From contig CAZYIA010000001.1 of NCBI GenBank assembly GCA_964646765.1, positions 1,334 through 65,333 on the forward strand: a stretch of 64,000 nt of DNA, written 5' to 3'. Each line of letters begins with the position of its first letter. Within the stretch, counting starts at the first letter, position 1. The translations under genes and the position numbers were made by a program. Source of the DNA: an uncultured Candidatus Saccharibacteria bacterium. GTDB taxonomy: Bacteria > Patescibacteriota > Minisyncoccia > Phycocordibacterales > UBA9973. Shown one piece after another: positions 5,193 through 38,922 of the stretch. Under the pieces are notes generated by a model. It made no database searches, was not told the origin of the DNA, and saw nothing but the letters and a program-made list of their open reading frames with translations.

Positions 5193-5210
5193 TCTGTTTG
5201 AGAGAATCCT

Positions 5211-13079: not shown

Positions 13080-13084
13080 GGTTT

Positions 13085-13478
13085 TGCGGAGGAGGCGAGA
13101 TTCGCCCGCGGCTAAAACTTTTTCGTCAAAAAGTTTTGTCTGGGCACCAGCTCGTCTGTTTTGTTTACTAACAAAACATGACTCCGCTGTTCGAATCTCA
13201 CTCGAATATGAAGCAGTTCATATTCTCTCCTCACGCAAAAGAGCCTCTTTAAGGACTCTTGATTGCGGAGGAGGCGAGATTCGAACTCGCGGTCAGGTTT
13301 CCCCAACACAGTCTTTCCAGGACTGCCATTTAAACCACTCATGCACTCCTCCGTATATTTCATTTTTCTCAAACGGAGGTCGCACAGGGTGCGAAACAGT
13401 GCATGAGTGGTCGGCCACTATTGTGTGCCGGCTTAAATTGAAGCAGTTCAATGCAAGCCCATCTCATGCACTCCTCCC
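13085..13478. repeat. tRNA-Ser-derived partial repeats flanking the intact gene
   Basis: A 20-nt copy of the tRNA 3' end tgcggaggaggcgagattcg at 13085-13104, minus sense. A 15-nt copy of the 5' end at 13464-13478, minus sense. A 13-nt inverted copy AGTGCATGAGTGG at 13399-13411. gaagcagttca occurs twice. Confidence 0.6.
13266..13352 (-). tRNA. tRNA-Ser (anticodon GGA)
   Basis: Reverse complement folds as acceptor GGAGGAG/CTCCTCC, anticodon stem CAGTC/GACTG with loop CTGGAAA, a long variable arm, T-arm GCGAG-TTCGAAT-CTCGC, discriminator G. No encoded CCA. Confidence 0.8.
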
Positions 13479-13501
13479 TTAGAACCAATCATTTTTAACA
13501 C

Positions 13502-14623: not shown

Positions 14624-15373
14624 ATGACCACTTTTCGAAATCCTGTTCTACATACGACACAGAATGTTTCTCGTTTACATAAAGAAGCGCAGGGGACAAG
14701 TAGCACCTCAAAACTAAACTGGCTTAGAGCGGCGGTGCTCGGTGCTAATGATGGGATCGTTTCCATTTCCTCACTTATTGTTGGTGTTGCTGGAGCTTCA
14801 AATTCACTTCGCGCAATACTTACCGCTGGTATTGCAGGAGCGGTAGCAGGAGCGCTCTCGATGGCGGCAGGGGAGTATGTGTCGGTGTCTTCACAACGAG
14901 ATGCTGAAAAGGTACTTCTTGAAAAGGAGCGCCAAGAGCTTATTGATACTCCGACCGAAGAACTGCATGAACTTACCGATATCTATAAAAACAAAGGTTT
15001 GTCCGCGGAGACTGCGGCACAAGTGGCAAAAGAACTTACCGCCCACGATGCGTTCGCTGCCCACGTTGAAGCAGAATTAAAAATTGATCCGAACGATCTT
15101 ACCAACCCATGGCATGCTGCTTACGCTTCAGCTTTAGCGTTTTTAGTTGGATCAGTTATTCCACTCCTAGCAGTTATTATTCCCCCAGCTTCTTGGCGAA
15201 TCCCGGTCAGTTTTATTGCAGTTATTATTGCCCTCGGTATAACCGGAACTCTCTCTGCCCATGTTGGAGGAGCCAATAAGATACGGGCTGTCGCACGTGT
15301 TGTTCTCGGTGGTGTTTTAGCCATGCTCGTAACATTTTCTATTGGCAAACTCTTCGGTATTTCTGGCCTATAA
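14624..15373 (+). CDS. VIT1/CCC1-family iron/manganese transporter
   Basis: 249 aa. LNWLRAAVLGANDGIVSISSLIVGVAGAS is the VIT-family signature. Coiled middle region and C-terminal TMs. Confidence 0.8.
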   Translation: MTTFRNPVLHTTQNVSRLHKEAQGTSSTSKLNWLRAAVLGANDGIVSISSLIVGVAGASNSLRAILTAGIAGAVAGALSMAAGEYVSVSSQRDAEKVLLEKERQELIDTPTEELHELTDIYKNKGLSAETAAQVAKELTAHDAFAAHVEAELKIDPNDLTNPWHAAYASALAFLVGSVIPLLAVIIPPASWRIPVSFIAVIIALGITGTLSAHVGGANKIRAVARVVLGGVLAMLVTFSIGKLFGISGL

Positions 15374-15528
15374 GAGCGATTTCCACAGCTGGGGTAGAGC
15401 CCTTCCTTTTATTCAAAATGTGTGCTTTAATACGAAGTGTATTTTCGTGTTCGACCGTTTTGGGTAACCAGTAGGCCGCGACTGAAATTACGGTCGAATA
15501 ATTCTAGATCACAAGATCTATTCTCACT

Positions 15529-15828
15529 ATGGCAGCAAAACTCTACATCGGTTCTCTCGCTTACGCGACTACCGATGACAGCCTCCGCAACTATTTTGCG
15601 ACAGCTGGAAACGTTGTTAGTGCATCAGTCATCATGGATAAGATGACCGGTCGCTCACGCGGTTTCGGTTTCGTAGAAATGGGCAGCGAGCAGGAAGCAC
15701 AGGATGCTATCGCAAAGTTCGATGGAACCGAACTCGACGGTCGCACAATCCGTGTTTCTGTAGCACAGGCTAAGGAGCGCACAGGTGGCAATGGCGGCGG
15801 CGGATTCCGCGGCGGCAATCGCTACTAG
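15529..15828 (+). CDS. RRM-type glycine-rich RNA-binding protein
   Basis: 99 aa. RNP2 KLYIGSL and RNP1 RGFGFVEM motifs, Gly-rich tail GGNGGGGFRGGNRY. Confidence 0.9.
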   Translation: MAAKLYIGSLAYATTDDSLRNYFATAGNVVSASVIMDKMTGRSRGFGFVEMGSEQEAQDAIAKFDGTELDGRTIRVSVAQAKERTGGNGGGGFRGGNRY

Positions 15829-15845
15829 TACGTTTTCTCATTTAC

Positions 15846-15876
15846 AAAAAATCCGCTTCGGCGGATTTTTTGTTTT
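15846..15876 (+). terminator. intrinsic terminator
   Basis: atccgc-ttcg-gcggat hairpin followed by tttttgtttt. Confidence 0.8.
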
Positions 15877-15914
15877 GGTTGCAGATAATACAGTGCTACC
15901 GTATAGTTTTGGTG

Positions 15915-16005
15915 TTTGGGCGCGTTGCGGAATTAGTATCGCGTCTCAGAAGTGAGAGGCGATATACTGGGAACCCAGTTTCTAAGCATATCGCCGCAAG
16001 ACCTT
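15915..16005 (+). ncRNA. degenerate tRNA-Leu-like 5' segment fused to a hairpin-rich tail (pseudo-tRNA or structured RNA)
   Basis: GGGCGCGTTGCGGAATTAGTATCGCG-TCTCAGAAG closely parallels the tRNA-Leu 5' half 165 nt downstream but lacks a 3' acceptor complement. It is followed by a ggcgatat...atatcgcc stem. Confidence 0.35.
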
Positions 16006-16080
16006 AAGCGTTTTGTTTCAAAATGCGAAAGGTGTACAACTCCTGTAAGGAGTCACGAAAGATAAATTTGTGTCTTGAGT

Positions 16081-16162
16081 GGGCGTGTGGCGGAACTGGT
16101 ATACGCGTACGTCTCAGAAGCGTATCCCGAAAGGGTTGGAGGTTCAAATCCTCTCACGCCCA
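16081..16162 (+). tRNA. tRNA-Leu (anticodon CAG)
   Basis: Acceptor GGGCGTG/CACGCCC, anticodon loop CTCAGAA, long variable arm TCCCGAAAGGGTTG, T-arm GGAGG-TTCAAAT-CCTCT, discriminator A. Confidence 0.8.
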
Positions 16163-16197
16163 CTCAAGATAGAAGTTAATTGCATCACTAGCCCACT

Positions 16198-16485
16198 ATG
16201 AATAAAGAACATAAAAAAGTTATTGTTTCCGGCAGAGTCCAGGGAGTCTTTTTCCGTGATAGCGCAAAAGAAGTCGCTCACTCATTAGGTATCTTTGGTA
16301 CGGTGCGAAATGCTACCGACGGGACGGTCCATGTTGAAATAGAAGGGGAACACGAGACTCTCGAGCAGTTCCTTTTTTGGTGTGCGACAGGTCCTAAGGA
16401 TGCAATTGTTACTAATATGGATGTAACCAAGGGAGAGTTTAAAAATTTCTCAACTTTTGAAATTCTACCTGATTTACAAGGCTAA
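16198..16485 (+). CDS. acyP: acylphosphatase
   Basis: 95 aa. VSGRVQGVFFRDSAKEVAHSLGIFGTVRN is the acylphosphatase signature. Confidence 0.85.
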   Translation: MNKEHKKVIVSGRVQGVFFRDSAKEVAHSLGIFGTVRNATDGTVHVEIEGEHETLEQFLFWCATGPKDAIVTNMDVTKGEFKNFSTFEILPDLQG

Positions 16486-16534
16486 ATTTAGAAAAGACTG
16501 GAAAAAAGTACCTTTTTTGCTATAATCTGACGAT

Positions 16535-17758
16535 ATGCAGAAAGTATTTCGCGCGGGCTTCCTCTTTGTCGCTTTTGCCCTTCTAGCCCTTTCTATCCCA
16601 GTATTTGCAGAAGAGAAAGACCCCATAAAGGCTGATACACCAACAGTCAGTACTCCGGTGCTTTCACCTGATGACCAAGAACTATATAAGGAGATTGATC
16701 AGTTACTCATACTTGGTTTTCGGGGAACTGAAGTTACTGATGAGAGTCCAATTGCCACTATTCTAAAAGATACTAATTTGGGAGGGGTTATTCTCTTTGA
16801 TTATGATTCCTTGACCAAAAAGTTTGATCGAAATATTAGTTCACCATCACAACTTCAAGCTCTTACTACTGCACTTCAAAGCCGCGCAGCAACACCACTT
16901 TTTATTTCAATTGATGAAGAAGGTGGAGCAGTGAATCGTTTGAAAAAGTCATACGGGTTTTCCTATGTCTTACCACGAGCAAAAGAGCTAGGTTTAAAGA
17001 AAACATCAAACACCCTTCTTCAAAGTAAAAAACTTGCTCGGCAGCTTAAGGTGCTCGGTATCAATTTAAATTTTGCTCCCGACGTTGATCTTGATTATGG
17101 TACCCGAAGCCCGATTATCGGTCTCTTTGGCCGCGCATTTAGTTCAAAGCCAGCAGTTGTTGTTGCTCATGCAAAAGCCTTTATTGATGGCCATAACTAT
17201 TACGGTATTGGAACTGTTATTAAGCATTTCCCAGGCCACGGTAGTGCGCGAGGGGATACTCATGCGGGGTTGGTAGATATTACTCGTACCTACGATGTCC
17301 GTGAGGCTGAACCATTCCAGAAATTGGTTACCAGTGGAGATGCTAAAGCCGTAATGGTTGGTCATCTTTTTGACCGTGACATCGATCCAACGTATCCAGC
17401 TTCTCTTTCAAAAGTGTTTGTTACCGATCTTCTCCGCAAGAAACTTAACTTTGACGGTGTTGTTGTCAGTGATGATCTTAATATGGGAGCAATTGCCGAT
17501 GCGTATTCTCCGGGAGAAGCAGCTGTTCTCGCTCTTTCAGCTGGTGACGATATGTTGATTTTTTCTAACAACATTGACTCTTATGATGACAATCTGGTGT
17601 ATAACGTCCGCGATGCAGTATTTAAAGCGGTGCAAGATGGAACGCTCCCACGTTCTCGAGTTCAGGATGCTTTCAGTCATGTAATGCTCTGGAAAGCATG
17701 GCTTAATGTTATCCCTGACAAAGATCCTGGGGATGCTAGCGACGACGAAAGTCTCTAG
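16535..17758 (+). CDS. glycoside hydrolase family 3 beta-N-acetylhexosaminidase (NagZ-like), secreted
   Basis: Signal peptide. GH3 N-terminal domain blocks GGVILFDYD and KHFPGHGSARGDTHAG. Confidence 0.8.
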   Translation: MQKVFRAGFLFVAFALLALSIPVFAEEKDPIKADTPTVSTPVLSPDDQELYKEIDQLLILGFRGTEVTDESPIATILKDTNLGGVILFDYDSLTKKFDRNISSPSQLQALTTALQSRAATPLFISIDEEGGAVNRLKKSYGFSYVLPRAKELGLKKTSNTLLQSKKLARQLKVLGINLNFAPDVDLDYGTRSPIIGLFGRAFSSKPAVVVAHAKAFIDGHNYYGIGTVIKHFPGHGSARGDTHAGLVDITRTYDVREAEPFQKLVTSGDAKAVMVGHLFDRDIDPTYPASLSKVFVTDLLRKKLNFDGVVVSDDLNMGAIADAYSPGEAAVLALSAGDDMLIFSNNIDSYDDNLVYNVRDAVFKAVQDGTLPRSRVQDAFSHVMLWKAWLNVIPDKDPGDASDDESL

Positions 17759-17824
17759 TGTGGTATACTTTTGTAGTTCTATTAGAAGTTAGAAAGTAAC
17801 TCCGGATTTTCCGGGTAATAATGT

Positions 17825-18352
17825 ATGTGTATAGACTGTAAAGGTCCAGTTGGTTTTTCTCCAAAGAGTCTCGGTCTTCTTTTGCTCCGTCTTGTTGTCG
17901 CGGGCATTTTTTTGTATCACGGTTGGAATAAGTTCATGTTTATGGACAATACGGTGATATTCTTCGGTACGCTCGGCCTCGCGCCATTCTTTGCGTACTT
18001 TATTGCTCTCGTTGAAGTTGTTGGTGGTTTGTTTATGCTTCTCGGTGCATTTCCATGTGTTACCGGTATCATGCTTGCTCTCGACATGGTGGTTGCTATC
18101 TTCTTGGTAAAACTTTCAAGCGGTTTTGTTGGCATGGAAACCGAACTTCTTCTTTTTGCTGGCTCACTTGCTCTTGCCCTCATGGGAAGTGGTCGCTATG
18201 CAATTATGAAACACTGTCCATGTAAATGGTGCCGCTGGTGCAAACAAGATGGTGGTTGCGCATGTTGCGGAGGTGGCTGCAAAGACTGTAAAGATTGTGC
18301 AGCGTGTAAGGATGGAGTTTGTGCTCTGCCTAAAACTGAGAAGTCTTCTTAA
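17825..18352 (+). CDS. DoxX-family membrane protein with Cys-rich C-terminal tail
   Basis: LLLRLVVAGIFLYHGWNKF DoxX motif and 4 TM segments. C-terminal 45 aa carry 14 Cys (CPCKWCRWCKQDGGCACCGGGCKDCKDCAACKDGVC). Confidence 0.75.
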   Translation: MCIDCKGPVGFSPKSLGLLLLRLVVAGIFLYHGWNKFMFMDNTVIFFGTLGLAPFFAYFIALVEVVGGLFMLLGAFPCVTGIMLALDMVVAIFLVKLSSGFVGMETELLLFAGSLALALMGSGRYAIMKHCPCKWCRWCKQDGGCACCGGGCKDCKDCAACKDGVCALPKTEKSS

Positions 18353-18446
18353 AAGGCTGTTTTGTTTGACTGTTTTCACTAGTTCTTTATAATCAAGAAA
18401 ACTTCTTGTCAGGAGTTTTATTAATCAGTAGTTCAGTATATTCGTT

Positions 18447-18758
18447 ATGATGGACGATAAAGCATTTCTTGAGTACGTAGTTAAGGCTCTTGTTGATAAT
18501 CCGAACGACGTTAAAATTGATCGCACCGTTGATGAAATGGGTGTGCTCGTAACTCTCTCAGTTAATCCAGCAGATATGGGTAAAGTGATTGGCCGCCAGG
18601 GTAATACCGCTAAGGCAATCCGCACTCTTCTCCGTGTGATTGGCATGAAGAACAACGCTCGTGTAAACCTCAAAATTAATGAACCAGAAGGCGGCACAAA
18701 AAGTGCAAATCCTTCTGAAGCCATGGATGAGGCTCTCGCTGACCTTAAAAACATGTAA
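18447..18758 (+). CDS. KH-domain RNA-binding protein (KhpA/YlqC-like)
   Basis: 103 aa. KH GxxG loop VIGRQGNTAKAIRTLLRVIG. Sits at the position of the KH gene in the rpsP-KH-rimM-trmD operon. Confidence 0.85.
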   Translation: MMDDKAFLEYVVKALVDNPNDVKIDRTVDEMGVLVTLSVNPADMGKVIGRQGNTAKAIRTLLRVIGMKNNARVNLKINEPEGGTKSANPSEAMDEALADLKNM

Positions 18759-18764
18759 AACAAA

Positions 18765-18795
18765 GGCCGCCCGAAAGGGCGGTTTTTGTTTTCCC
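18765..18795 (+). terminator. intrinsic terminator after the KH gene
   Basis: gccgccc-gaaa-gggcgg hairpin followed by tttttgtttt. Confidence 0.75.
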
Positions 18796-18803
18796 CAAGC
18801 CTG

Positions 18804-18831
18804 TTGACGGCTGTTTTTAGGTCGGTAGTAT
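18804..18831 (+). promoter_or_regulatory. sigma-70-like promoter TTGACG-N16-TAGTAT
   Basis: Same architecture as the rpoB promoter at 22051-22078. Confidence 0.5.
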
Positions 18832-18837
18832 GGATAT

Positions 18838-18967
18838 ATGGAATGCCAGAACGCGAAAAACTTTAGCCTCCTTCTAAACCTCCTTACGCCACTCGAGGGT
18901 TGATTCCTGCGTTCGAAACGATCGAAATCAGAAATCAGCTCTCGAAAGAGGGCTGATTTTGTTTTTT
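18838..18967 (+). ncRNA. candidate small RNA (promoter-to-terminator unit, about 130 nt)
   Basis: Bounded by the promoter above and a 10-bp stem plus T-run terminator at 18934-18967. The only ORF inside is 12 codons. Confidence 0.3.
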
Positions 18968-19004
18968 GATAAAAAAATATTGTTGAACTCTTAAATTTAC
19001 CGCT

Positions 19005-19517
19005 ATGCAGCATTTATCATTTTTACCTATCGTAATCCTGAAAGGGATATATGCGAAAAAGCAATTTTCTTGTAGCACATCGTGCTACCAACTCTCACTG
19101 TCAGACAGCGAGCTAACCATTAGCGATACTAACACCGTACCGCACAGCCGATTCACTACTACTACTACTACTACTGCCGGTTCCCGCTACACTACTCGCC
19201 ATGTTCTCACCTCGCTACTCGCAGCAGAAGAAGATGAGGCTAAGTATCCTTCGCTAATTCAGAGTGAACTGGAAAAACTAAATGTGCAGCCAGGCTCACT
19301 ATACAGTTTGCTGGATGCTGTGCAGAAAAACACCCTGGACTTTTTGTGGCCAGATGCGAAATTACTACGCATTCTGGAACCTTTCATGGTAGATGAGAAA
19401 CTCCATTTCTTTATTGCTCAACAAGAGCATGCACGACCAGGTTTTACTCTGGTCTATGTTCCTGCAAGAGAATTTATGCAAATGGAGGCCTGTCCTTTTT
19501 TGTCACATCATCGGTAA
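19005..19517 (+). CDS. hypothetical protein, compositionally atypical (enterobacterial-like codon usage), Thr6 tract
   Basis: 170-aa ORF with a CTG/CCG/CAG-rich codon set unlike its neighbours. (ACT)6 at 19155-19172. Occupies the position where rimM is expected and has no RimM motifs. Confidence 0.45.
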   Translation: MQHLSFLPIVILKGIYAKKQFSCSTSCYQLSLSDSELTISDTNTVPHSRFTTTTTTTAGSRYTTRHVLTSLLAAEEDEAKYPSLIQSELEKLNVQPGSLYSLLDAVQKNTLDFLWPDAKLLRILEPFMVDEKLHFFIAQQEHARPGFTLVYVPAREFMQMEACPFLSHHR

Positions 19518-19604
19518 GATTTACAGTATTCGAAATTGGGAGGGGGTTGTCATTGGCAATCCCTTTTCTATTTGCACGGTTCTTTGAGAGAAGGTAGAGT
19601 ACAC

Positions 19605-20294
19605 CGTATGCGATTTCATGTCGTAACCCTGTTCCGAAACCTGGTTGAGCCGTATTTTTCTGACTCAATTTTAGGCCGGGCAATTAAAGAAAAAAAGATC
19701 TCCGTGAAGTTTTATAACCCGCGGGATTTTGTTCGTGGTAAGTACCGAAAAGTATGGCCAGACGGCAATATTTCCGCCCAGGTGGATGAGCGGCCGTACG
19801 GTGGCGGCCCAGGCATGATTATGATGGCTGACCCAGTGCTTCGAGCGGTAGCCAAGGCGCAGGGAAGCATCAAAAACAAAAAAGCTAAGACAAAAATTAT
19901 TTTCTTTTCGCCAGCGGGTAAAAAGTTTGATACAGCGTATGCAAAAATAGCGGCAAAAAAGTATACCGATATTATTTTAATCAGCGGTCGCTACGAAGGC
20001 ATTGACGCCCGTGTTTTAAAGATTTTGAAAGCTGAAGAAATTTCGGTTGGCGATTATGTGCTCACTGGAGGAGAACTTCCAGCGGCAATTTTAATTGACT
20101 GTATTTCCCGCCAAGTAGAAGGAGTGCTCGGCAACTTTGATTCTCGCGAGGAAGAGCGCGTATCTTCTTCAGAGGTTTATACTCGACCAGAAGTGCTCGA
20201 ATGGAAAGGGAAGAAGTACCGGGTTCCGAAAGTCCTTTTGACCGGAAACCACAAAAAAATAGAAGAGTGGAAGAGCAAAGGTAAAAAGATATAA
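19605..20294 (+). CDS. trmD: tRNA (guanine37-N1)-methyltransferase
   Basis: MRFHVVTLF..., ERPYGGGPGM, SGRYEGIDARV and GDYVLTGGELPA blocks. Start placed at M of MRFHVV rather than the ORF-track 19536. Confidence 0.9.
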   Translation, partial: RMRFHVVTLFRNLVEPYFSDSILGRAIKEKKISVKFYNPRDFVRGKYRKVWPDGNISAQVDERPYGGGPGMIMMADPVLRAVAKAQGSIKNKKAKTKIIFFSPAGKKFDTAYAKIAAKKYTDIILISGRYEGIDARVLKILKAEEISVGDYVLTGGELPAAILIDCISRQVEGVLGNFDSREEERVSSSEVYTRPEVLEWKGKKYRVPKVLLTGNHKKIEEWKSKGKKI

Positions 20295-20303
20295 TTTGTT
20301 TTT

Positions 20304-21614
20304 ATGGAAAGTCCTAGTTTTTTAGAGAGGAAAGAAGAAAAATCAACTGCAAAAGAACTCCTCAAAGGTTTTAAGGAGGGGATGAAAGATCTTACTAGCT
20401 GGAAACCTACTAGTCTGGATACTACTATTTTTCAGACCTACTTGAGGAGGTTCCTTATTGTCTCACTTGCTCTTTGGGCAGCTTCTATACCAGTTCAAAT
20501 TGGTAAACAGGGAGTAGACAGAATTAAGTACGAGCAAAGTAAAAAAAAGTTTCAAGACAAATACAAAGATTTGTCTGTTGAGTCGATATCACGGTTACAC
20601 CAAAGAGCAGTAGAAGCCTACGGGGAGCACTATGTAAATAGTATTCCAGGCGTGAGCTTAGTGAGTGGTGATGCCCAAGAAAAAGTTATTAAAAGGATGG
20701 AAGCTGATAAACCAGAAGTTTTTACTCTGGCAGGAAGTTTCAATATGGGCGACTGGGATAAAGAATTTACTCATTATGAAAAAGAATACGGGGATCTACT
20801 TGATGACGTAACGTTTAATAAAGAAGAATCATCGGAGTATATTATTCTAAAGCAGGATACTGTTTTAGATGTAAACCACAACGAATCTTATACTCATTGG
20901 GCTGAAAGAATGAAAGCATCCAAAGATACTGTTCCCGCAGAAGAATTTCTCTCTAAAATGGAAGTCTTTTTCCCGAAAGGTTGGATAAAAGGTGAAGTAC
21001 AATCTTTCACTTTTAAAGAGCAATATCCAAAACTTACTGCATATGGCGCAAAATCACAGACAGCTGGGGAAGTAGGAAATAATAAAGAACTATTCTTATA
21101 TGGAGTTCAGACAGAGGAATCACAAGGGGAGACTTTAGCTCATGAATTAGGTCATGAGAACGACTGGGAGCGGTCAACCAAACTAAGCCCAGAACAGAGA
21201 TTAGAACTTTTAATGAAAGTGCATGATCGTGTGACTTCAGAGAATAGGTTTCGCTCAGATTATGTAGAGTCCATTTTAAGTGGGGAATTGTATCCAGAGA
21301 TGAAAGATCCGAAAGTCATTCTTCAAACTGCCACTGTTGAGTATTGGGCTGAGATAACAGGTGAATACTTCTCAAACGGAGTTGGCAACTTAGCTTCTGA
21401 AGACGTTGAAGTTATTGAATGGATGATACAAAAAGTGGATCCAGAATTTTTAGCCACACACTCGGCAGGAGGTATTTTTGCTGCTTCGTATAGGGACCAC
21501 AACATACGACAAACAAAGCTCTTTGATGAAGCTTTTGAAGAAGAGAATTCTGACAGCCTAAATCAAAAAGATTATTTAAAAATTGCGTATTATCGGCGAT
21601 ATCTTAATTTATAG
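20304..21614 (+). CDS. membrane-anchored hypothetical protein with HExxH metallopeptidase-like motif
   Basis: 436 aa with one TM near residue 50. HELGHENDWER motif near residue 280. AGA/AGG-rich codon usage unlike host genes. Confidence 0.5.
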   Translation: MESPSFLERKEEKSTAKELLKGFKEGMKDLTSWKPTSLDTTIFQTYLRRFLIVSLALWAASIPVQIGKQGVDRIKYEQSKKKFQDKYKDLSVESISRLHQRAVEAYGEHYVNSIPGVSLVSGDAQEKVIKRMEADKPEVFTLAGSFNMGDWDKEFTHYEKEYGDLLDDVTFNKEESSEYIILKQDTVLDVNHNESYTHWAERMKASKDTVPAEEFLSKMEVFFPKGWIKGEVQSFTFKEQYPKLTAYGAKSQTAGEVGNNKELFLYGVQTEESQGETLAHELGHENDWERSTKLSPEQRLELLMKVHDRVTSENRFRSDYVESILSGELYPEMKDPKVILQTATVEYWAEITGEYFSNGVGNLASEDVEVIEWMIQKVDPEFLATHSAGGIFAASYRDHNIRQTKLFDEAFEEENSDSLNQKDYLKIAYYRRYLNL

Positions 21615-21628
21615 AGGGTACATTTTCT

Positions 21629-22018
21629 ATGATTAAACTTAATTGTTACTCAAAAGAGGAATTTCTAGGCGTTCTCGCGGTTAAGAATGGTTTTTTTACG
21701 ATAGAAAGTAAAAATAAGAGTTTTACTACTGCTCTACAGGAACTTTCAGAACAAGGGATTCCTGTTGCTAATATTGATAGCACAGTGAGTATTATATTTC
21801 CAAAAGATTCACGGTATATCTTTTTCTTAGAAAAGTTTCTTATAAAGTGTGGTTTTCGTATTATTCGTGTTGATACCGAACTCATCACAAAATTAAAACA
21901 GAAAGTAATGACCAATGATACGTCGGTTTCAGAAAGTTCATTTAACGAAATCTATGGGCAGCTTTCTGTCTATGAGGCGAGCCTATTACTGCGAACCCTA
22001 GATTCGCTACCTAACTAG
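21629..22018 (+). CDS. small hypothetical protein
   Basis: 129 aa with no recognisable motifs. Same atypical codon usage as the upstream gene. Confidence 0.4.
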   Translation: MIKLNCYSKEEFLGVLAVKNGFFTIESKNKSFTTALQELSEQGIPVANIDSTVSIIFPKDSRYIFFLEKFLIKCGFRIIRVDTELITKLKQKVMTNDTSVSESSFNEIYGQLSVYEASLLLRTLDSLPN

Positions 22019-22050
22019 CACTGCTTTCCCAGGATTTTAGGGAGATAAAC

Positions 22051-22078
22051 TTGACTTTCTTTCAAAAATAAGTAGTAT
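22051..22078 (+). promoter_or_regulatory. rpoB promoter TTGACT-N16-TAGTAT
   Basis: Hexamers at 22051-22056 and 22073-22078, about 165 nt upstream of the rpoB ATG. Confidence 0.55.
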
Positions 22079-22241
22079 AGCCCTTACCTAAGCCCTGATT
22101 GAGTTACGTCTTGCTTTGGTGTTATGAGCACTAAAAAAGTCGTCCTCTTGCTACTCAAAACAACCTGCCGCGCATAGCCCGGAGAAAAACTACCTAGGAA
22201 TTCGCGGTAGTTTGTTTTGCGTTTAGAGAGACAAAAAGAAT

Positions 22242-25200
22242 ATGTCGAAACTTGCAGCGACACGACCAAAAAAGTACTTTTCAAAGTACAAGGAACCTCT
22301 TGTTGAGTTTCCAAATCTCCTTGAGACCCAACTCATCTCGTTTGAGTGGTTGGTGGAGAAAGGCCTCGGTGAGGTCTTCAAAGAATTCTCACCAATTAAC
22401 GATTACTCGGGCAAAAAATTTCAGCTCGATTTCGTTTCGTTTACCTTGGGTGAACCAAAGTATGACGAGCACTACGCAAAAGCTAATAAGCTTACCTACG
22501 AAGGTCAGCTCAAAGCTCGCGTAAAGCTTTTTAATAAAACGATCAACGAAACCAAAGAGCAGGAAATCTTCATGGCGGATGTTCCGCTCATGACGGCACA
22601 CGGTACCTTCATCATCAACGGTGTTGAGCGTGTTATCGTTCCACAGCTTGCTCGTTCGTTCGGTATTTTCTTTACTGAAGACGAAGTAAAAGGCAAAAAG
22701 CACTTTGGTGCAAAAATTATTCCAGCTCGCGGTGTTTGGATCGAAATTGAAACTGATACCGACGGCACTCTTGTTGTTCGTATCGACAAGAAGCGCAAAT
22801 TCCCAGCCACGTCACTTCTCCGCGTGCTTGGCCTCGCTACTGATGCTGATATCTTAGCTGCCTTTAAAGACAGTGGATACGAAGCCCAGATCAAAGCTGG
22901 TCTCGAAAAAGATCCAGCAAAGACTCAGGGTGAAGCATACGTTGAAATTTATAAGCGTCTCCGTGATGGCGATCTTGCTACCGCTGATAACGCTAAGGAA
23001 TTTATCAACTCTCTTTTTGGAAGTGAGCGTTACGACCTTTCTCCAGTTGGTCGTTTCCGCTTCAACAAGCGCTTCGAAAAGAGTATGGACGAGAAAGAAC
23101 TTGCTCGTCGCACTATTTCCGCAGAAGATGTTGTGGTTGTTTTGAACAATGTTCTTACACTCAACGCTACCCCAGGGGCAAAGGCTGATGATATCGATCA
23201 CCTTGGTCAGCGCCGTGTTCGTTACGTTGGTGAAATGCTCCAGCAGAAAGTTCGTGTTGGTATGACACAGATTAAGCGTAATGTGCAAGACCGTATGTCG
23301 ACTATCGACACCGGAACAACGCTTCCAATCGCTATTGTTAACCAGCGTCCACTCCAGGCTCGTATTAAAGAATTCTTCACCACGAACCAGCTCTCACAGT
23401 TCATGAACCAGGAAAATATCTTGGCTGAGCTTGAACATCTCCGCACTCTTTCTGCGCTTGGTCCCGGAGGTCTCACTCGTGAGCGTGCAGGTCTTGAAGT
23501 TCGCGACGTGCACACTTCTCACTACGGTCGTGTATGTCCAATTCACACTCCTGAAGGTCCGAACATCGGTCTTATTCTTCACACTTCAACGTACGCTCGT
23601 GTAAACGACTTCGGTATCATCGAAACTCCATACATCAAAGTGAAAGACGGTAAAGTTACCGGCGAAGTGGTATACCTCAACGCTCTTGAAGAAGAGAAGT
23701 ATGTCATCGCTCACGCAGGTACAAAAGTAGACGATAAAGGTAAAATTGTTGAAGAAAAAGCTGAAGCTCGTATTCAAACTGAACCGGGTCTCGTTGATCG
23801 CGATAAGGTAGACTTTATCGACGTTGCAACCAACCAGGCATTCTCAATCGCTACTTCAACTATTCCATTCCTTGAGCACGACGACGCAAACCGCGCACTC
23901 ATGGGAAGTAACATGCAGAAGCAAGCAACTCCATGTATCGTTCCAGATGTACCACTTGTGGCAACCGGTATGGAAGAGCATATTGCTCGCGAAAGTGGCC
24001 GCGTAGCAGTTTCTCGAAGCGAAGGAGAAGTTGTTGCCGTAGATGCTCGTGAAATTACGGTAGAAGACAAAGCAGGTAAGAAGCACGTCTACAAACTCAT
24101 TAACTTCGAACGAACAAACAACTTCACCGTATTCCATCAGCGTCCAATCGTTTCAGTAGGTGATAAAGTGAAGAAAGGCCAGGTACTTGCTGACACCTCT
24201 TCATCATCACAAGGTCAGGTTGCTCTCGGACAAAACGTTCGCGTAGCCTTCATGGCATGGAACGGTGCAAACTTCGAAGACGCGATTATTCTTTCAGAAC
24301 GTCTCGTAAAGAACTCAAAATTTACTTCTATCTACGTTGAAGAATTCGTTTGTCTCGTTCGCGATACTAAGCTTGGACCTGAAGTAACCACTCGCGATAT
24401 TCCAAACGTTGGTGAACAGAAACTCAAAGATCTCGACGAAGAAGGAATTATCCGCATCGGTGCTGAAGTTCGCGAAAACGATATTCTCGTTGGTAAAATT
24501 ACTCCAAAGGGTGAAACCGAACTTACTCCTGAAGAACGTCTCCTCCGATCAATCTTTGCTGAAAAGGCTCGCGACGTGAAGGATACTTCACTTCGTATGG
24601 AACACGGTAAGCGTGGCCGCATTATCGGTGTGAAAATTTTCTCACGCGAAGCAGGTCATCAGCTTGAATCTGGCATCATCAAAAAAGTAGTTATTGAACT
24701 CGCTCAAGTACGTAACATTTCAGTAGGTGACAAGCTTGCTGGACGACACGGTAACAAGGGTGTTATCTCAACCATTCTTCCTGAAGAAGATATGCCATAT
24801 ACCGCAGACGGTCAGCCAGTAGACATGATTTTGACTCCGCTCGGTGTGCCATCACGTATGAACCTCGGACAAATTCTTGAAATGCACCTTGGTTTGGCTG
24901 CTGACACGCTTGGTTACCAGGCAATCATCCCACCATTCTGTGGCGCAACCGAAGGTGAAATCCGCGGTGAACTCAAAGCTGCTGGATGGCCTGAACACGG
25001 ACGCATCAAACTCTACGATGGTCGCACTGGTGACGCATTCGAACAAGATATCGCCGTTGGTGTGATGCACGTTTTGAAACTGCACCACATGGTGGAAGAC
25101 AAGATTCATATGCGTTCAATTGGACCGTACTCACTCATTACGCAGCAGCCACTCGGTGGTAAAGCACAAGGTGGTGGTCAGCGTTTCGGTGAAATGGAAG

Positions 25201-25448
25201 TGTGGGCGCTCGAAGGTTACGGTGCAGCGTATGCTCTCCGTGAAATGCTTACGATCAAGTCTGACGACATCATGGGCCGCTCACAAACGTTCGACTCAAT
25301 CATCAAGGGTGAAGATATTAAAACGCCAAACGCTCCAGCATCATTTTCTGTTATGTTGAACTACCTCCGTGGTTTGGCTCTCGACGTTGATCTCAAAAAG
25401 AAGGTCGGAAAGAATACTAGCGACGACTCCGCCGAAGGAGACGAATAA
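22242..25448 (+). CDS. rpoB: DNA-directed RNA polymerase subunit beta (short form)
   Basis: 1068 aa. Universal RpoB blocks such as [28 protein letters not shown] and NMQKQATP. Confidence 0.95.
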   Translation: [1068 protein letters not shown]

Positions 25449-25466
25449 TATCTAACGAGTTAATCT

Positions 25467-28400
25467 ATGGGAAAAGTTATAGATACAACTGACTTTGACT
25501 TCATTACACTCTCACTCGCGAGTCCTGAACGCATTCGCGAATGGAGCTACGGCGAAGTAACGAAGCCTGAAACAATCAACTACCGTACCGGCCGATCTGA
25601 ACGCGGTGGTCTCTTCGACGAGCGCATTTTCGGTCCAGAAAAGGACTACGAATGTTACTGTGGTAAATACCGACGTATTCGTTACAAGGATATTGTGTGT
25701 GAAAAATGTGGCGTGGAAGTAACTCGCTCTATCGTTCGCCGTGAACGCATGGGCCATATTGAACTTGCTTCACCAGTTGCACACATTTGGTTCCTCCGTG
25801 GTGTACCTAGCCGCATGAGTATTCTCATGAACATCACTGTTTCAGATCTTGAAAAGGTGATCTACTTTGCTGGTTACATCATCACCAAAGTACATGAGGA
25901 CGAAAAAGCTACGGTTATTAAAGACCTCGAAAGTGAATTTAAGGCAAAGGTAAAGAGTGCACAGGACGACGAGACTAAGGAAAAATTGAAGACGCTTCTC
26001 CAGAGTACTAAACGCGAAATCAACGAAATCTATGAAGGTCGTGTATTGAACGAAATCCAGTATCACCACTTCTCACTTAAGTACGGTACTTGTTTTGAGG
26101 CTTCAATCGGTGCTGAAGCAATCTTTAATCTCTTCAAGAATCTTGATCTCAAGCGTCTTAAAGATATTACCGAAGCTTCAATCGAAAAGGCTGGTAACCT
26201 TGAGCGTGAAAAACTTGAAAAGCGTCTCTCAGTTATTCGCTCAATGATGCACGCTTCTATTCGTCCTGAATGGATGTTCCTCACTGTCATTCCAGTTATC
26301 CCACCAGCACTCCGTCCGATGGTGGCTCTTGATGGTGGTCGCCATGCAACTTCAGATTTGAACGACCTCTACCGTCGCGTGATCAACCGAAACAACCGTT
26401 TGAAGAAGCTCAAGGAAATTGGCGCGCCAGACGTTATTCTCCGTAACGAAAAGCGTATTCTCCAAGAAGCAGTTGATGCTCTCATCGACAACTCAATTGC
26501 AAGTCAGAATGATTCTCAGGCAATGAGTCAGTCACAGCGTCGCGCACTCAAATCTCTTTCAGATAACTTGAAAAGTAAGCAGGGTCTCTTCCGTCAAAAC
26601 CTCCTCGGTAAGCGTGTAGACTACTCAGGCCGTTCAGTTATCGTGGTTGGTCCTACGCTTAAACTCTCACAGTGTGGTCTTCCAAAACACATGGCGCTCG
26701 AACTTTTCCGTCCGTTCGTCATTTCAAAACTCATTGAACGTGAATTCGCTTTCAACATTCGCGGTGCAAACCGTTTGATTGAAGAAGGTGTTCCAGAAGT
26801 GTGGGCAATTCTTGAAGAAGTGACAAAAGGGAAGTACGTGCTCTTAAACCGTGCACCAACCCTTCACCGTCTCGGTATTCAGGCATTCACACCAGTCTTG
26901 ATTGAAGGAAATGCTATTCAGGTGCACCCACTCGTTTGTTCTGCGTTCAACGCTGACTTCGACGGTGACCAAATGGCTGTCTACGTTCCGCTTTCTGATG
27001 AAGCACAGGCTGAAGCTCGTGAGCTCATGGCTTCAAACAAAAACCTTCTTAAGCCACAATCTGGTGAACCAATCGTAAACCCATCACAGGATATTATTCT
27101 TGGTTGTTTCTGGATGACTAAAGAAGTGAAGGGTGACAAGGGTGAAGGCATGCTCTTCTCTTCACCGAATGAAGCGATTACTGCCTACGACTTCGGTATG
27201 GTTTCATTCCGCGCTAAGATTAAAGTTCTTCCAACTGAGAAGCCAAAGTACGCTCCGTTTAATGGTTTGCCATTTGAAACAACGATCGGACGACTTCTCT
27301 TTAACTCGGTGCTTCCAGAAGACTTCCCATACTTGAACGAAGAAATCACCAAGAAGCGTATGTCGAACTTGGTAGATGATTTGATTCTCCGCCACGGTAT
27401 TGATGGTACTCCTGATATTCTCGACAAGATCAAGAACTTCGGTTATCGCTACGCAACTCGTTCAGGAACAACCTTCGGTATGGACTCTGTTCGTATTCCG
27501 GAAGGCAAGCCTGCACTCATTGCCGCTGCTCGAAAAGAAGAAGAAGAAATCATCAGTCAGTATAACGACGGTCTTCTTTCGAAAGAAGAAAAGTACGAAA
27601 AGGTTATTGAAATCTGGGAGCGCGCAAAGAAGGACGTTGAAAAACTCATTCCAGAAACACTTGCGAAAGCTGGTTCAGTGAACGATATGGTTACCTCTGG
27701 TGCCCGTGGTTCAGTTGGTCAGGTTACACAGATGGCCGGTATGAAGGGTCTCATCATTAACACTCAGGGCCGCACAATTGAATTCCCAGTTATCCCGTCA
27801 TATAAGGAAGGTCTTTCTCCGATTGAATACTTCATTATTACCCACGGTTCACGTAAAGGTCTTGCCGACACAGCGCTTAACACCGCAAAGGCAGGTTACC
27901 TCACTCGTCGTCTTGTTGACGTTGCTCAAGACGTTGTTGTTACCGAAGAAGATTGTGGAACTAAGGAAGGAAAGTGGGCAACTGCTGATAACGTGCTCGG
28001 TATTGAAATTTCTCTCACCAAAAACCTCCGTGGTCGTGTGCTTGCTGCTGACTTGAAAGACGCAAAGGGCGAAACTATGTTCAAGCGTGGCACACTTCTC
28101 TCAAAGGACGATGCTTCAAAAGTTGAAAAAGCTGGTATCGAAAAGGCATACATTCGCACACCACTTACCTGTAAGTTACATCACGGTATCTGCCGACAGT
28201 GTTATGGTCTTGACCTCGGTCGCAACAAGCTCGTTGAGCTTGGTGAAGCAGTTGGTATCGTTGCCGCTCAAGCTATCGGTGAACCAGGAACCCAGCTTAC
28301 ACTCCGAACCTTCCACGCCGGTGGTGTGGCACAGGTGGACATTACTCAAGGTTTGCCACGTGTTGAAGAAATCTTCGAACGTCGTACGCCAAAGAGTCCA

Positions 28401-29132
28401 GCTGTCGTTTCTCACGCAGATGGCGAAGTAATCGAAATCAAAGGTGAAGGCCGCGACAAAGTTCTTGTTGTGCTCAATGACACGAAGGGAGACAAGAAAT
28501 CAAACACCGTTGAATATCCAATTCCATTCCGCCGAAATCCGCTCGTAAAATCTGGCGACCGCGTTCTTTCTGGTCAGATCCTTACTGACGGTTCAGCTGA
28601 TATCAACGAAGTATTTAAGTACGGTGGCCGAGAAGCTGCAGAAGAATACATCGTTCGAGAAATCAACAAAGTGTACGAACTCCAGAGTGCATCAATTTCT
28701 CGTAAGCACATTGAAATCATCATTCGCCAAATGTTCTCACGCCGACGCATTAAGGATGCCGGTGATACCGACTTCTCACCAGGTGAGGTTGTTGAAAATG
28801 TTGAATTGATGGACGAAAACAAGCGCGTTTCTCTTTCAAACACTGAAGAAGCAAAAGCTGATGAAATCGTACTTGGTATTTCTGAAACTGCTCTTACTAC
28901 AAAGAGCTGGCTCTCCGCGGCATCGTTCCAAAATACAAACCGCGTGCTCATTTCAAACGCGATTCGTGGTGGTATTGATCGTCTCCGTGGTCTTAAGGAA
29001 AACGTTATCATTGGCCGCTTGATTCCGGCTGGTACTGGTTTTCCAAATTCACCGACAGCCGCTCGTGTGCAGGTAGAAAAGAAACCCGTCATCACTCCTA
29101 CAGAAGAAGTTACTGAAAAAGTCGAAGCGTAA
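25467..29132 (+). CDS. rpoC: DNA-directed RNA polymerase subunit beta'
   Basis: 1221 aa. Zn-binding CxxC...CxKC, and [16 protein letters not shown] catalytic motif. Confidence 0.95.
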
Positions 29133-29174
29133 GTTAGTTGCGAGCGATTCTAAAGAATCGCTCGCCAAGGCTTC

Positions 29175-30926
29175 GTGTCTACGCCCGTAGAAACAATTAA
29201 AGAACGCCTTTCGATCGACGAAGTTATTGGCTCGTACGTTAAACTTGAACGCTCGGGCCAAAACTTCAAGGCTCGGTGCCCATTTCATAACGAAAAGACG
29301 CCGTCGTTTTATGTATCGCCAAATCGTGGCGGATACTACTGTTTTGGATGTGGTGCAAAGGGGGATATCTTCACATTCGTAGAATCGTTTGAAGGTCTCG
29401 ACTTTAAGGGAGCATTGAAAGTGCTCGCCGACCGAGCAGGTGTAGAGCTAAAGCCAGAGAAGCCGGGAGCAAAGGACGAACGCGACAGACTCTTTGCCAT
29501 CATGGAAGCAGCAACTCAGTACTTTGAGTCAGCGCTTACTCGAGTAAACGATATTCAAGCGTATATCAAGGATCGCGGCCTTCATGAAGACACTATAAAA
29601 AGTTTTCGCATAGGCTACGCACCGGAAGGCTGGCGGAATCTCGCTGATCATTTACAGAGTCTCGGCTACTCGCTTAAAGAGCTTGAAGAAGCTGGTTTGG
29701 CGAAACGGGTTAGCGGAGAAGGCACAAAAGAAGATCGTATTTATGATCGTTTCCGTGGCCGCGTTATGTTTCCGATTAGCGATAGTTCTGGCCGCATCAT
29801 TGCATTTTCTGGCCGCATCGTGAAAGATGATGGTACAAGTGCGAAGTATTTAAATTCTCCAGAAACGCCACTCTTCGATAAATCGAGTACGTTGTATGGT
29901 TTAGATCGTGCTAAAGAGACTATTCGACGCTTAGGTTATGCCATTTTAGTCGAAGGCCAATTCGATCTTGTGCTTGCCCATCAAACGGGGACAAAAAATG
30001 TAGTGGCTGCTTCAGGTACAGCCCTTACTGATGACGAAGGCGAAACTGGCAGTCGCGGCGTGGCAAACATGAAAATGATTGCTCGTCTCTGCAAGAATGT
30101 TGTGCTCTCGTTTGATGGAGACAGTGCTGGTATTAGAGCTACCTATCGTGGAGTGCGACTGGCTTGGATATTAGGTATGGACACCAAAGTAGCGCTTTTG
30201 CCAGAAGGCAAAGATCCTGCAGATGTCATCCGTGAAGGTGGAGATACCTGGCAAAAAGTTCTTCGTACCACAAAGCCAGCTCTAGAATTTTTTACTAGCC
30301 GTATTCGTGCAGAATCTTCCGACGACCGCGTATACCACAAACGAGTTCGTGACGAACTTTTATCCCTCGTGGCTTTACTTCCTTCGGCTATCGATCAAGA
30401 GCACGCATTAAAAACACTTGAGCGCGAAACAGGAGTAAATGCCGAATCATGGAAACATGATTTAGAGCAGATCGTTCGTGAACCTCGTCCCGTTGGGGTG
30501 GTGCAAACCGAACGTCTCGAAGCGCCACGATTTACTCGGGCAAGTGACAGACTCTTCGGTCTCATTGCCTGGCAGAAAAGTGTACAGAGTCCAGTCATTA
30601 ACCCAGAGATGTACGAAAAAAAGATTATTGAAACTGTAGGTGAAGAAACATTTAAAAAACTTCGCGACGCAGTATCTGATAGAACTGAAACTCTCATTTT
30701 TGAAGCCGAAGCTGCATTTGCTGATACTGCTCAGATAGCTATAGAAGCCGACATGCTCACCGGGTTACTTACAGAAGAAGTTATTAGAGATGAAATTAGG
30801 GCTTTAACTCCTGAAGTACGACGAGCCGAAACGAATCATGACCCAACGTTACCAGCCCTTTTAGAGAAACACCGAACGCTAACTGATAGGCTCGAGAGCG
30901 AGCGAAGGAAGCGTCACGGAGCATGA
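29175..30926 (+). CDS. dnaG: DNA primase
   Basis: GTG start. Zinc finger CPFHNEKTPSF...CFGCG, and TOPRIM EGQFDLV...DGDSAG. Confidence 0.9.
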   Translation: MSTPVETIKERLSIDEVIGSYVKLERSGQNFKARCPFHNEKTPSFYVSPNRGGYYCFGCGAKGDIFTFVESFEGLDFKGALKVLADRAGVELKPEKPGAKDERDRLFAIMEAATQYFESALTRVNDIQAYIKDRGLHEDTIKSFRIGYAPEGWRNLADHLQSLGYSLKELEEAGLAKRVSGEGTKEDRIYDRFRGRVMFPISDSSGRIIAFSGRIVKDDGTSAKYLNSPETPLFDKSSTLYGLDRAKETIRRLGYAILVEGQFDLVLAHQTGTKNVVAASGTALTDDEGETGSRGVANMKMIARLCKNVVLSFDGDSAGIRATYRGVRLAWILGMDTKVALLPEGKDPADVIREGGDTWQKVLRTTKPALEFFTSRIRAESSDDRVYHKRVRDELLSLVALLPSAIDQEHALKTLERETGVNAESWKHDLEQIVREPRPVGVVQTERLEAPRFTRASDRLFGLIAWQKSVQSPVINPEMYEKKIIETVGEETFKKLRDAVSDRTETLIFEAEAAFADTAQIAIEADMLTGLLTEEVIRDEIRALTPEVRRAETNHDPTLPALLEKHRTLTDRLESERRKRHGA

Positions 30927-30958
30927 TATACTCTCGTTACTAACTAACCCATAAAAAT

Positions 30959-38497: not shown

Positions 38498-38722
38498 AAT
38501 AATGGTTTCGTTTTAGTTGTTACCAGAAGAGGGAAGTCTCCTCTGATAACAACTAAAATTGTATGTCAAAAAGTGACGGTTTTCGTTACATTACCATGAT
38601 TTTGCAGTTAGTCAAAAGTTCTTTTTTAGTCGAAGGGCCATCGATCTAATAAAAGGAGGGTCCATTGAAAAACAGATCAAAGTCTGCTAATCTATTGTGG
38701 CTACAGGGTTTTTTAGCCCAGT

Positions 38723-38795
38723 GCCGCCTTAGCTCAGTTGGTAGAGCAACGCTTTTGTAAAGCGAAGGTCCTCGGTTCAAGTCCGAGAGGCGGCT
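38723..38795 (+). tRNA. tRNA-Thr (anticodon TGT)
   Basis: Acceptor GCCGCCT/AGGCGGC, D-arm GCTCAGTTGGTAGAGC, anticodon loop TTTGTAA, T-arm CTCGG-TTCAAGT-CCGAG, discriminator T. 73 nt. Confidence 0.85.
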
Positions 38796-38922
38796 CAGAA
38801 AATTTTCTATTTAGTCATGATGTATGCGAGGTATGTCCTGCGCGAAGGTACGTCGCTTGAGAAGCGGGAGCGGATGGGGCATCTGCGGACACGGCTAGTG
38901 CTGAACGATAAGAAAATTACGC

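Follow-up and report, generated by a model that had tools for sequence, protein, structure and literature searches.

A putative membrane-tethered gluzincin of an uncurated family and its small partner, encoded between trmD and rpoB in a Saccharibacteria contig

Bacteria of the candidate phyla radiation (CPR; Patescibacteria) have small genomes, in which roughly every second gene lacks an assigned function. The question raised here is what kind of system is formed by two such genes that stand directly behind trmD in one of these genomes, and how they came to be there. The window, that is, the whole stretch of DNA that was analysed, covers 64,000 nucleotides of contig CAZYIA010000001.1 of an uncultured Candidatus Saccharibacteria bacterium; in it, trmD is followed by an open reading frame (ORF) of 436 aa, hereafter the large protein, and by one of 129 aa, the small or partner protein, both of which, together with the motif HELGHENDWER in the former, were confirmed by the ORF calls (Table 1). 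The original prediction, made from the letters alone, had described the two as a cassette of foreign composition in the place of rplS, consisting of a metallopeptidase-like membrane protein and a small ORF, and had likened it to toxin/immunity or anti-sigma/regulator pairs. We propose, with moderate confidence, that the pair is instead a self-contained CPR operon for a membrane-tethered zinc peptidase, from a gluzincin family that has not been curated, and for its stoichiometric partner.

The large protein and its zincin-type domain

The motif HELGHENDWER occupies residues 280–290 of the large protein (TLAHELGHENDWERS), H280 being its first histidine. An exhaustive HMMER search, in which a profile of 5 sequences was run against 1.84 billion representatives (50% identity), retrieved a family of 600 representatives at E ≤ 1e-3 and of 468 at E ≤ 1e-10, and in nearly all of the 150 matches listed the shared region corresponded to profile positions ~205–392. 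HExxH is present in every listed family protein but one, and it is invariant in the 150 members that were aligned (150/150). In the alignments of 150 and of 125 members, H280, E281, H284, R309, E346, Y347 and D367 do not vary at all, while P224, N286, D287, W288, S318, Y320, V321, E322, I324, A349, I351, Y355 and D379 are conserved in at least 90% of the sequences; the signature of the family reads HExxH[A/E]NDW ... R ... DRxxSxYVESI ... EYWAEIxxxYF ... D ... DPxF. Moreover, the large gene is under purifying selection, with a ratio of non-synonymous to synonymous substitution rates (dN/dS) of ~0.16 against its orthologs.

An HExxH motif with a distal glutamate is the layout of the gluzincins (MEROPS clan MA, subclan MA(E)), and in the large protein the metal would be bound by the residues of this motif and by that glutamate. 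Both hallmarks of this group were found, namely a conserved HExxH on an α-helix and, on a downstream helix, a glutamate as the putative third ligand, here E346. The positions of the helices come from a model of the large protein predicted by AlphaFold2 with 150 sequences (pLDDT 79, pTM 0.75); with only 5 sequences the pLDDT was 43 and the model was unusable. Along the chain, the model has a helix at residues 15–31, a long helix at 38–88, which includes the hydrophobic residues 50–67, helices between 93 and 163, and a small β-sheet with strands at 209–211, 234–238, 255–257 and 262–266; after the sheet come a helix at 271–285 carrying HELGH (pLDDT >90), helices at 296–325 and a helix at 336–358 carrying E346. 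The pLDDT exceeds 90 in the blocks 281–350 and 361–380, and has a mean of 88 in the block 351–360. The model shows the layout of a zincin, in which an edge strand precedes the helix of the active site and the 'glutamate helix'.

This family is large and no curated model covers it. Scans of the Pfam, NCBIfam, PADLOC and PHROGs libraries gave no match for the large protein, a search of PDB sequences with the family profiles found no genuine relative of it, no relatives were present on the viral contigs searched, and protein cluster look-ups returned no name for either member of the pair. A PDB sequence match to penicillin acylase was rejected as spurious, being confined to the low-complexity N-terminal region. 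The admission of the original prediction that the family could not be named was thus correct, whereas the candidates that it had listed, DUF4157, Tox-MPTase, M48, M56 and SprT-like, found no backing: in the Pfam check the window protein matched none of them, and the 125 members gave only sporadic, sub-threshold zincin matches to SprT-like (3, best E 0.002), MPTase-PolyVal (1) and BSP (1).

When the PDB was searched by Foldseek with the model, anthrax lethal factor (LF) took ranks 1–3 and 5 (best 1j7n_B, E 0.17, probability 0.60) and 3dl1, the ortholog of MtfA from Klebsiella as confirmed at E 4e-144, took rank 8 (E 1.9); the weak matches also included PprI/IrrE (8sln) and the entries 6cyj, 6cyy, 6cz6 and 6d2s, labelled 'M. 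tuberculosis transcriptional regulator', which we take to be PrpR with its zincin-like domain. Among the models of BFVD, the best match was an Erwinia-phage 'endopeptidase family M34' protein (probability 0.97, E 0.014), after which came zincins of polyvalent proteins.

With LF (M34, ATLF) and the phage M34-like protein, which are the best Foldseek matches in the two databases, the large protein shares HExxH on one helix with a Glu ligand ~50–66 residues later on another, and an Asp three residues past the second His (HExxHxxD). LF carries the motif HEFGHAVD ... EFFAE, and its Glu-aromatic-aromatic-Ala-Glu string, EFFAE, has its counterpart in the EYWAE of the large protein. On the other hand, no sequence-profile match supports this likeness and the fold E-values are only 0.01–0.2. 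The large protein also differs from LF in belonging to a family of 330–450 aa, predicted to be membrane-anchored and having its own helical N-domain, in the conserved NDW after HExxH and the invariant R309 and D367 of that family, in its dedicated small partner gene, and in lacking the protective-antigen-binding and substrate-recognition domains of LF.

The second comparison is with MtfA (M90; PDB 3dl1/3khi), a gluzincin of subclan MA(E), to which M34 also belongs (PMC3890501). By inspection, the stretch HEVAHKLD ... AECFAVLSEYFFSAPELF of E. coli MtfA aligns without gaps with HExxHANDW ... EYWAEICxxYFxxPxxL of the family, and the region of E346 parallels AECFAVLSEYFFSAP in the same protein; the spacing from HExxH to the glutamate is 63 residues in MtfA and 66 in the large protein. 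MtfA, too, works with a protein partner, Mlc. The differences are that no profile match extends beyond the HExxH turn, that the Foldseek E-value is as high as given above, and that MtfA is a soluble cytoplasmic protein whose partner is an unlinked ROK-family repressor, whereas the large protein has a predicted N-terminal anchor and an adjacent partner of ~130–150 aa from a family without known relatives. The M34 profile ATLF gave no match to the window protein at E ≤ 1 and none among the 125 members at E ≤ 0.01, and the M90 profile Peptidase_M90 gave no Pfam match to either. By the architecture of the model the domain is an LF/MtfA-like gluzincin, and we assign it to neither M34 nor M90.

The partner gene and the inheritance of the pair

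The small gene starts after a gap of 14 nt from the large one and is preceded by a GAGGG Shine-Dalgarno-like site. The same arrangement is met in a Saccharibacteria metagenome-assembled genome (MAG), where a zincin gene of 32% identity is followed, after 8 nt, by the gene for a 146-aa protein with 23% identity to the 129-aa protein of the window. A scan of genome contigs with narrow patterns taken from the 5-sequence alignment gave one locus, and a scan of metagenomes with a motif-selected alignment gave 36 further loci. A hidden Markov model (HMM) of the partner was then iterated over all six-frame ORFs of all loci, a single-sequence jackhmmer search having converged too early. It found 28 matches, every one of them immediately downstream of a family zincin gene (28/28) and none elsewhere in the loci. 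Of the 39 distinct loci whose sequence continues for 300 nt or more downstream, 23 have the partner, among them 20 of the 20 with a zincin score of 190 bits or higher against the subfamily profile; the two genes are often separated by a gap of −4 nt, with overlapping stop and start codons. The tight linkage with a small ORF, which the original prediction had pointed out, is borne out, as is the metallopeptidase-like, zincin-type nature of the large protein.

A different partner family behind the zincins of the distant subfamilies was considered and rejected, the ORFs downstream of these genes forming no family. One metagenome locus (L038) has two paralogous zincin genes of a distant subfamily in tandem, at 3856–4788 and 4920–5942, without a partner-family gene.

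The 129-aa protein defines a second family without known relatives, for which none was found in Pfam, NCBIfam, PDB or PHROG; among PDB sequences it came closest to designed proteins or to a STAS domain (E 0.06). The pattern common to its members consists of an N-terminal half, which to judge from the sequence is probably β-rich, followed by LxxxLxxxGYxV and by a helical tail ending in MSYLEQTxLLExL. Searches of Pfam, NCBIfam and PDB with 20 partner-family members found no sigma-70 r2/r4 or HTH (helix-turn-helix) domain, and so nothing that would mark an anti-sigma/sigma or a protease/repressor pair. In PADLOC, the small protein had only a sub-threshold match to KwaB/DUF4868 (E 0.008, 13.5 bits) and the zincin had none, so that the pair does not qualify as a known defence system. 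One family protein, P0064, has a canonical Tat motif at its N-terminus, MNMDRRNFLKK... (MNMDRRNFLKKATVSTVGAVVFA), and shows beyond its zincin domain, at the end of its contig, a partner-like segment (17.6 bits, ...DPLFHLARREYLERNGYEVA); it may be a natural, Tat-exported fusion of both proteins.

A word-indexed search of 5.8 billion proteins returned four relatives only, with 87, 65, 62 and 32% identity. The surroundings of the 65% ortholog, seen on four contigs, read KH–trmD–445 aa–125 aa–rpoB–rpoC, with the pair genes overlapping by 8 nt; those of the 62% ortholog read trmD–pair–rpoB, with an overlap of 4 nt. Compared with one close relative (L001), the window gave an amino-acid identity of 92% for trmD (dN 0.05) and of 95% for rpoB (dN 0.04), but of 65% for the large gene (dN 0.25) and of 58% for the small gene (dN 0.30), so that the pair diverges 5–6 times faster than the genes that flank it. 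For both pair genes the proportion of non-synonymous differences (pN) is far below that of synonymous ones (pS), which indicates purifying selection. Because the synteny is kept and pN is so much lower than pS, we conclude that the pair is old at the trmD–rpoB site and is held there under purifying selection; on these sequence comparisons it is, in the close clade, vertically inherited and fast-evolving.

Beyond this clade, the family spans distant CPR lineages. A MAG named 'uncultured Candidatus Saccharibacteria' (L010) carries the pair, the FtsZ encoded at another locus (L042) is identical to entries named Candidatus Giovannonibacteria, and several loci come from 0.1-µm groundwater fractions. 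The neighbours at the distant loci are varied and unrelated housekeeping or surface genes: TyrRS, another class II tRNA synthetase, a HerA/TrwB-like ATPase (L014), a CYTH-domain protein, an LCAT-type lipase with Ig-like domains, Big_5 plus C39-like surface proteins, a YebC–RuvC cluster, penicillin-binding proteins, FtsZ and dnaG–rpoD. At the loci examined, no wider neighbourhood is kept, and no integrase, transposase or secretion-system genes were seen save the HerA/TrwB-like ATPase. At two related loci (L032, 9529–13707, and L034, 9498–14072), giant proteins of 1392 and 1524 aa, without any Pfam domain, are encoded directly downstream of the pair. Upstream of the pair, L032 also has a Big_5 plus C39-like surface protein, one of two such proteins among all neighbours in the summary scan. 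At L011, a metagenome locus, the zincin pair again lies beside dnaG–rpoD, as in the window, although in divergent orientation, and coincidence is possible.

Possible roles of the pair

In the reading that we favour, zinc would be held by H280, H284 and E346, and E281 would act as the general base; the N-terminal hydrophobic helix would tether the catalytic domain to the membrane; the partner would be translated together with the protease and most likely bind it one-to-one, either as an inhibitor/chaperone or as a regulatory/specificity subunit. The place after trmD would then be a lineage-specific accident of gene order, with no functional tie to rplS or to the ribosome.

As for the tether, the original prediction had called the large protein 'single-TM' (with one transmembrane, TM, segment), and this is plausible: residues 50–67 form a hydrophobic stretch of 18 uncharged residues, with a mean Kyte–Doolittle (KD) value of 1.86 and RR directly before it. 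A comparable segment lies near residue 45 across most of the family (median 19-residue KD maximum 1.38), often with a single Glu in a 'LALE' context. Among the members with clean segments, 43 have the excess of K/R before the segment (N-terminal flank) and 19 behind it (C-terminal flank); several members begin with classical signal-peptide-like N-termini, and P0064 with the Tat motif given above. These features point to a catalytic domain that lies outside the cell rather than in the cytoplasm, which we regard as rather probable.

Several observations weigh against the favoured reading. In the window clade the charge bias is reversed, with 2 K/R on the N-terminal and 6 on the C-terminal flank, which makes the topology ambiguous. 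Since the partner has neither signal peptide nor TM segment, an outward-facing protease would have contact with its cytoplasmic partner only prior to export or by way of the N-terminal tail of 49 residues. Moreover, no partner is detectable at 16 of the 39 loci counted, all of them with zincins of more distant subfamilies, and the fusion seen in P0064, whose contig is truncated, may stem from a frameshift artefact. Concerning the peptidase itself, the sequence-profile searches (Pfam, NCBIfam, PDB) matched the large protein to no curated or solved peptidase; the comparison of the family with E. coli MtfA gave a probability of 0.5% in hhalign and 4.4 bits in hmmsearch, in both cases over the HExxH turn only; and the PDB search by Foldseek with the model returned nothing at E ≤ 1e-3, every match having E > 0.1.

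Three other roles were weighed. According to the first, which we consider unlikely, the large protein is exported and acts as an LF-like proteolytic toxin against the cells of a host or of competitors, and the signal-less small protein confers immunity in the cytoplasm of the producer. The tight and often overlapping genes, a partner without signal peptide or TM segment, the rate at which both genes diverge relative to their flanks and the rare-codon bias of the large gene would suit such a pair, as would the nearest folds, which include M34-type toxin proteases and phage polyvalent-protein zincins. In the zincins of polymorphic toxins (Tox-MPTase, MPTase-PolyVal), likewise, the enzyme is joined by a tightly linked, signal-less small ORF and evolution is fast, and to these belong the one weak MPTase-PolyVal match among the 125 members and the polyvalent proteins of the BFVD list. 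However, the zincin found here does not form the C-terminal module of a long secreted polymorphic toxin, its architecture being that of an anchor, a helical region and the zincin; no known Tox-MPTase or immunity family was matched in Pfam, and PADLOC returned only the sub-threshold KwaB. The examined loci are also free of genes for type VI or type VII secretion systems (T6SS, T7SS) or for contact-dependent inhibition (CDI), of orphan immunity arrays and of mobile-element genes, save for the ATPase of L014, so that no conserved context of secretion or mobility accompanies the pair; rather, it occurs in a single copy in the window, in a stable trmD–rpoB position amid core genes in the close clade, and it has no relatives on viral contigs. 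The resemblances to toxin/immunity or to anti-sigma/regulator pairs are backed by no test, given a partner without sigma, HTH or known immunity domains and with no PADLOC match of note.

The second possibility, about which we are quite doubtful, is a signal-transducing protease and a small protein that serves as its regulator or as its substrate, as in BlaR1/BlaI, ImmA/ImmR or IrrE/DdrO: on a signal, the cytoplasmic domain would cleave or sequester this small protein or else a factor that it binds. The titration of Mlc by MtfA follows a similar logic, the flanking charges in the window clade favour a cytoplasmic C-terminal domain, the partner is predicted to be cytoplasmic and translationally coupled, the weak fold matches include PprI/IrrE, MtfA and presumably PrpR, and the pair is near dnaG–rpoD in two loci, the window and L011. 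As in the ImmA/IrrE (M78) and BlaR1 (M56) pairs, a zincin gene stands beside a gene for a small protein (~125–150 aa), and BlaR1 is also membrane-bound. Unlike in those pairs, neither an HTH nor a winged-helix domain was recognised in the partner, nor any sigma or anti-sigma-antagonist domain, no Pfam M78 or M56 match was found in the 125 members, and the predicted anchor is a single N-terminal helix instead of a polytopic sensor. Furthermore, export is indicated by the charge bias across the family and by Sec/Tat-like N-termini in some members, and no neighbouring regulon is kept. Should the protease face the cytoplasm after all, the pair would represent a new protease-regulator switch.

The third possibility, to which we give a similarly low probability, is a surface weapon or tool specific to the episymbiosis of CPR bacteria, in which an outward-facing, membrane-anchored LF-like zinc endopeptidase would cleave surface proteins of the host or of the cell itself, a partner of a new type would keep it inactive or deliver it, and both would diversify rapidly under host–symbiont conflict. 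More generally, a protease exposed at the surface would be a candidate for host interaction or for envelope processing in episymbionts. To return to the tethered zinc peptidase with a stoichiometric partner, the interest of this unannotated and widely conserved CPR pair is that it joins a recognisable putative protease outside the named families with a partner without known relatives; being kept from Saccharibacteria to Giovannonibacteria, the module is a concrete and testable part of the CPR dark matter.

Composition and surroundings of the pair

The idea that a recently acquired foreign cassette displaced rplS after trmD is the weakest of the alternatives, very improbable and largely refuted. 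In its favour are the low GC content of the pair (38% in the large and 35% in the small gene, against ~42% in the window), the codons AGA/AGG, used for 10 of the 17 Arg residues of the large gene, compared with ~11% over the remainder of the window (binomial P = 2e-6), and the failure to find rplS in the window. The statement that both genes are rich in AGA/AGG holds for the large gene and not for the small one (0/4). Against foreign origin, GC3 (0.31 in the large gene, 0.30 in the small one) is inside the range of the window genes, and synonymous codon usage is nearly that of the host: when synonymous codon choice was compared by likelihood with that of the remaining window, the expectations being simulated, the large gene was a mild outlier with z = −2.7 and the small gene was normal with −1.3, while trmD itself has −2.65. 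The AGA/AGG bias recurs in the Arg codons of the orthologs (9/18 in L001, 6/17 in L007 and 11/30 in L010); because they have the same bias, it is a property of the large gene and not a mark of import. A bias of this kind is typical of weakly expressed genes; rpoB and rpoC have zero AGA/AGG codons. The gene order is the same in relatives, where the pair proteins are 58–67% identical and trmD/rpoB 92–95%, which speaks for an old residence with fast divergence; the succession trmD–pair–rpoB in relatives at 62–65% identity is just the conserved synteny that the original prediction had named as its own refutation. A scan of 18300–22400 found no tRNA or terminator-like inverted repeat flanking the pair, no integrase is present among the ORFs of 15000–27000, and the true codon outliers are elsewhere, at 37031–41646.

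It is correct that rplS does not follow trmD. A tblastn search of the 64-kb window with a hand-entered query sequence of E. coli L19 gave no match at E ≤ 10, and with E. coli S16 and RimM, entered likewise, nothing credible was found for rpsP and rimM. On the other hand, the canonical clusters rpsP–rimM–trmD–rplS and rplKAJL–rpoBC are already broken in this lineage, so that the expectation of rplS after trmD is weak and the pair can hardly be said to have taken its place.

The product of trmD scores 204.8 bits against NCBIfam TIGR00088, above the equivalog cut-off of 195, and 215.4 bits against NF000648, slightly below the cut-off of 220; its true start is probably at 19608, which matches the recorded 228-aa product. 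Only 9 nt separate its stop codon from the start of the large gene, and the two probably share one operon. The spacer between the small gene and rpoB is longer (223 nt) and contains the promoter-like TTGACT-16-TAGTAT, which suggests that rpoB is driven by a promoter of its own and that the pair forms the tail of the trmD transcription unit; the count of promoter-like sites in the consensus scan was no higher than in shuffled sequence.

Table 1. Coordinates, in the window, of the pair, of its predicted parts and of the neighbouring features
Feature	Position	Strand	Remark
KhpA-type KH-domain gene	18447-18758	+	upstream end of 18.4-32.3 kb gene run
Orphan ORF, 170 aa	19005-19517	+	between KH gene and trmD
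trmD (tRNA m1G37 methyltransferase), 228 aa	19608-20294	+	TIGR00088; Pfam tRNA_m1G_MT 3e-33
Zincin-like protein gene, 436 aa	20304-21614	+	ORF list
Predicted membrane anchor or uncleaved signal-like segment, residues 50-67, FLIVSLALWAASIPVQIG	20451-20504	+	
Conserved C-terminal domain, putatively catalytic, residues ~205-392 (~180 aa)	20916-21479	+	
HELGH, residues 280-284; putative zinc His pair and catalytic Glu	21141-21155	+	
E346 in EYWAEI..EYF; putative third zinc ligand, 'glutamate helix'	21339-21341	+	
Partner protein gene, 129 aa	21629-22018	+	ORF list
Promoter-like TTGACT-16-TAGTAT	22051-22078	+	consensus scan
rpoB, 1068 aa	22242-25448	+	Pfam domains seen on identical gene in L005
rpoC	25467-29132	+	
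dnaG	29175-30926	+	
rpoD	30959-32251	+	

Some further features of the window were noted. Downstream of the pair, rpoB–rpoC are followed directly by dnaG–rpoD, and rplKAJL is not upstream of rpoB (22242–32251). Farther away, the strongest codon outlier is the gene for a 907-aa SF1 helicase-like protein at 38923–41646 (−), with z = −16 and AGA/AGG in 22 of 33 Arg codons; the protein has the domains Viral_helicase1/AAA_30/UvrD_C_2 and a long, unannotated N-terminal half. The adjoining gene for an M20-family peptidase, at 37031–38497 (−), has z = −6.7, and a tRNA-Thr gene lies beside these two outliers at 38723–38796 (+). Ribosomal RNA as the cause of the outliers at 37–41.6 kb was rejected, as Rfam finds no rRNA there. 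Judged by codons and by the place at a tRNA gene, the case for a horizontally acquired island is better for 37031–41646 than for the zincin pair. A second tRNA call, tRNA-Ser(GGA) by ARAGORN at 13265–13352 (−), falls within a 132-aa ORF (13084–13482), with Rfam tRNA silent at the gathering threshold; either the call or the ORF is spurious.

Upstream of the pair, the stretch between the KH gene and trmD (18759–19607) amounts to ~775 nt here, compared with a spacer of 75 nt in the relative L001. It holds the 170-aa ORF, which contains a poly-Thr run, matches no family and has atypical codons (z = −3.6), and, upstream of this ORF, a terminator-like hairpin with a 13-bp stem at 18931–18960. That the ORF could be a divergent rimM was considered and rejected, since it has no Pfam match and is not present in L001; the whole stretch looks like a lineage-specific insertion or remnant. 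Still farther upstream, the gene at 17825–18352 (+) encodes a DoxX-family membrane protein with an unusual Cys-rich C-terminal tail, CPCKWCRWCKQDGGCACCGGGCKDCKDCAACKDGVC, and in L001 a DoxX protein of the same length, 175 aa, is found at the same position.

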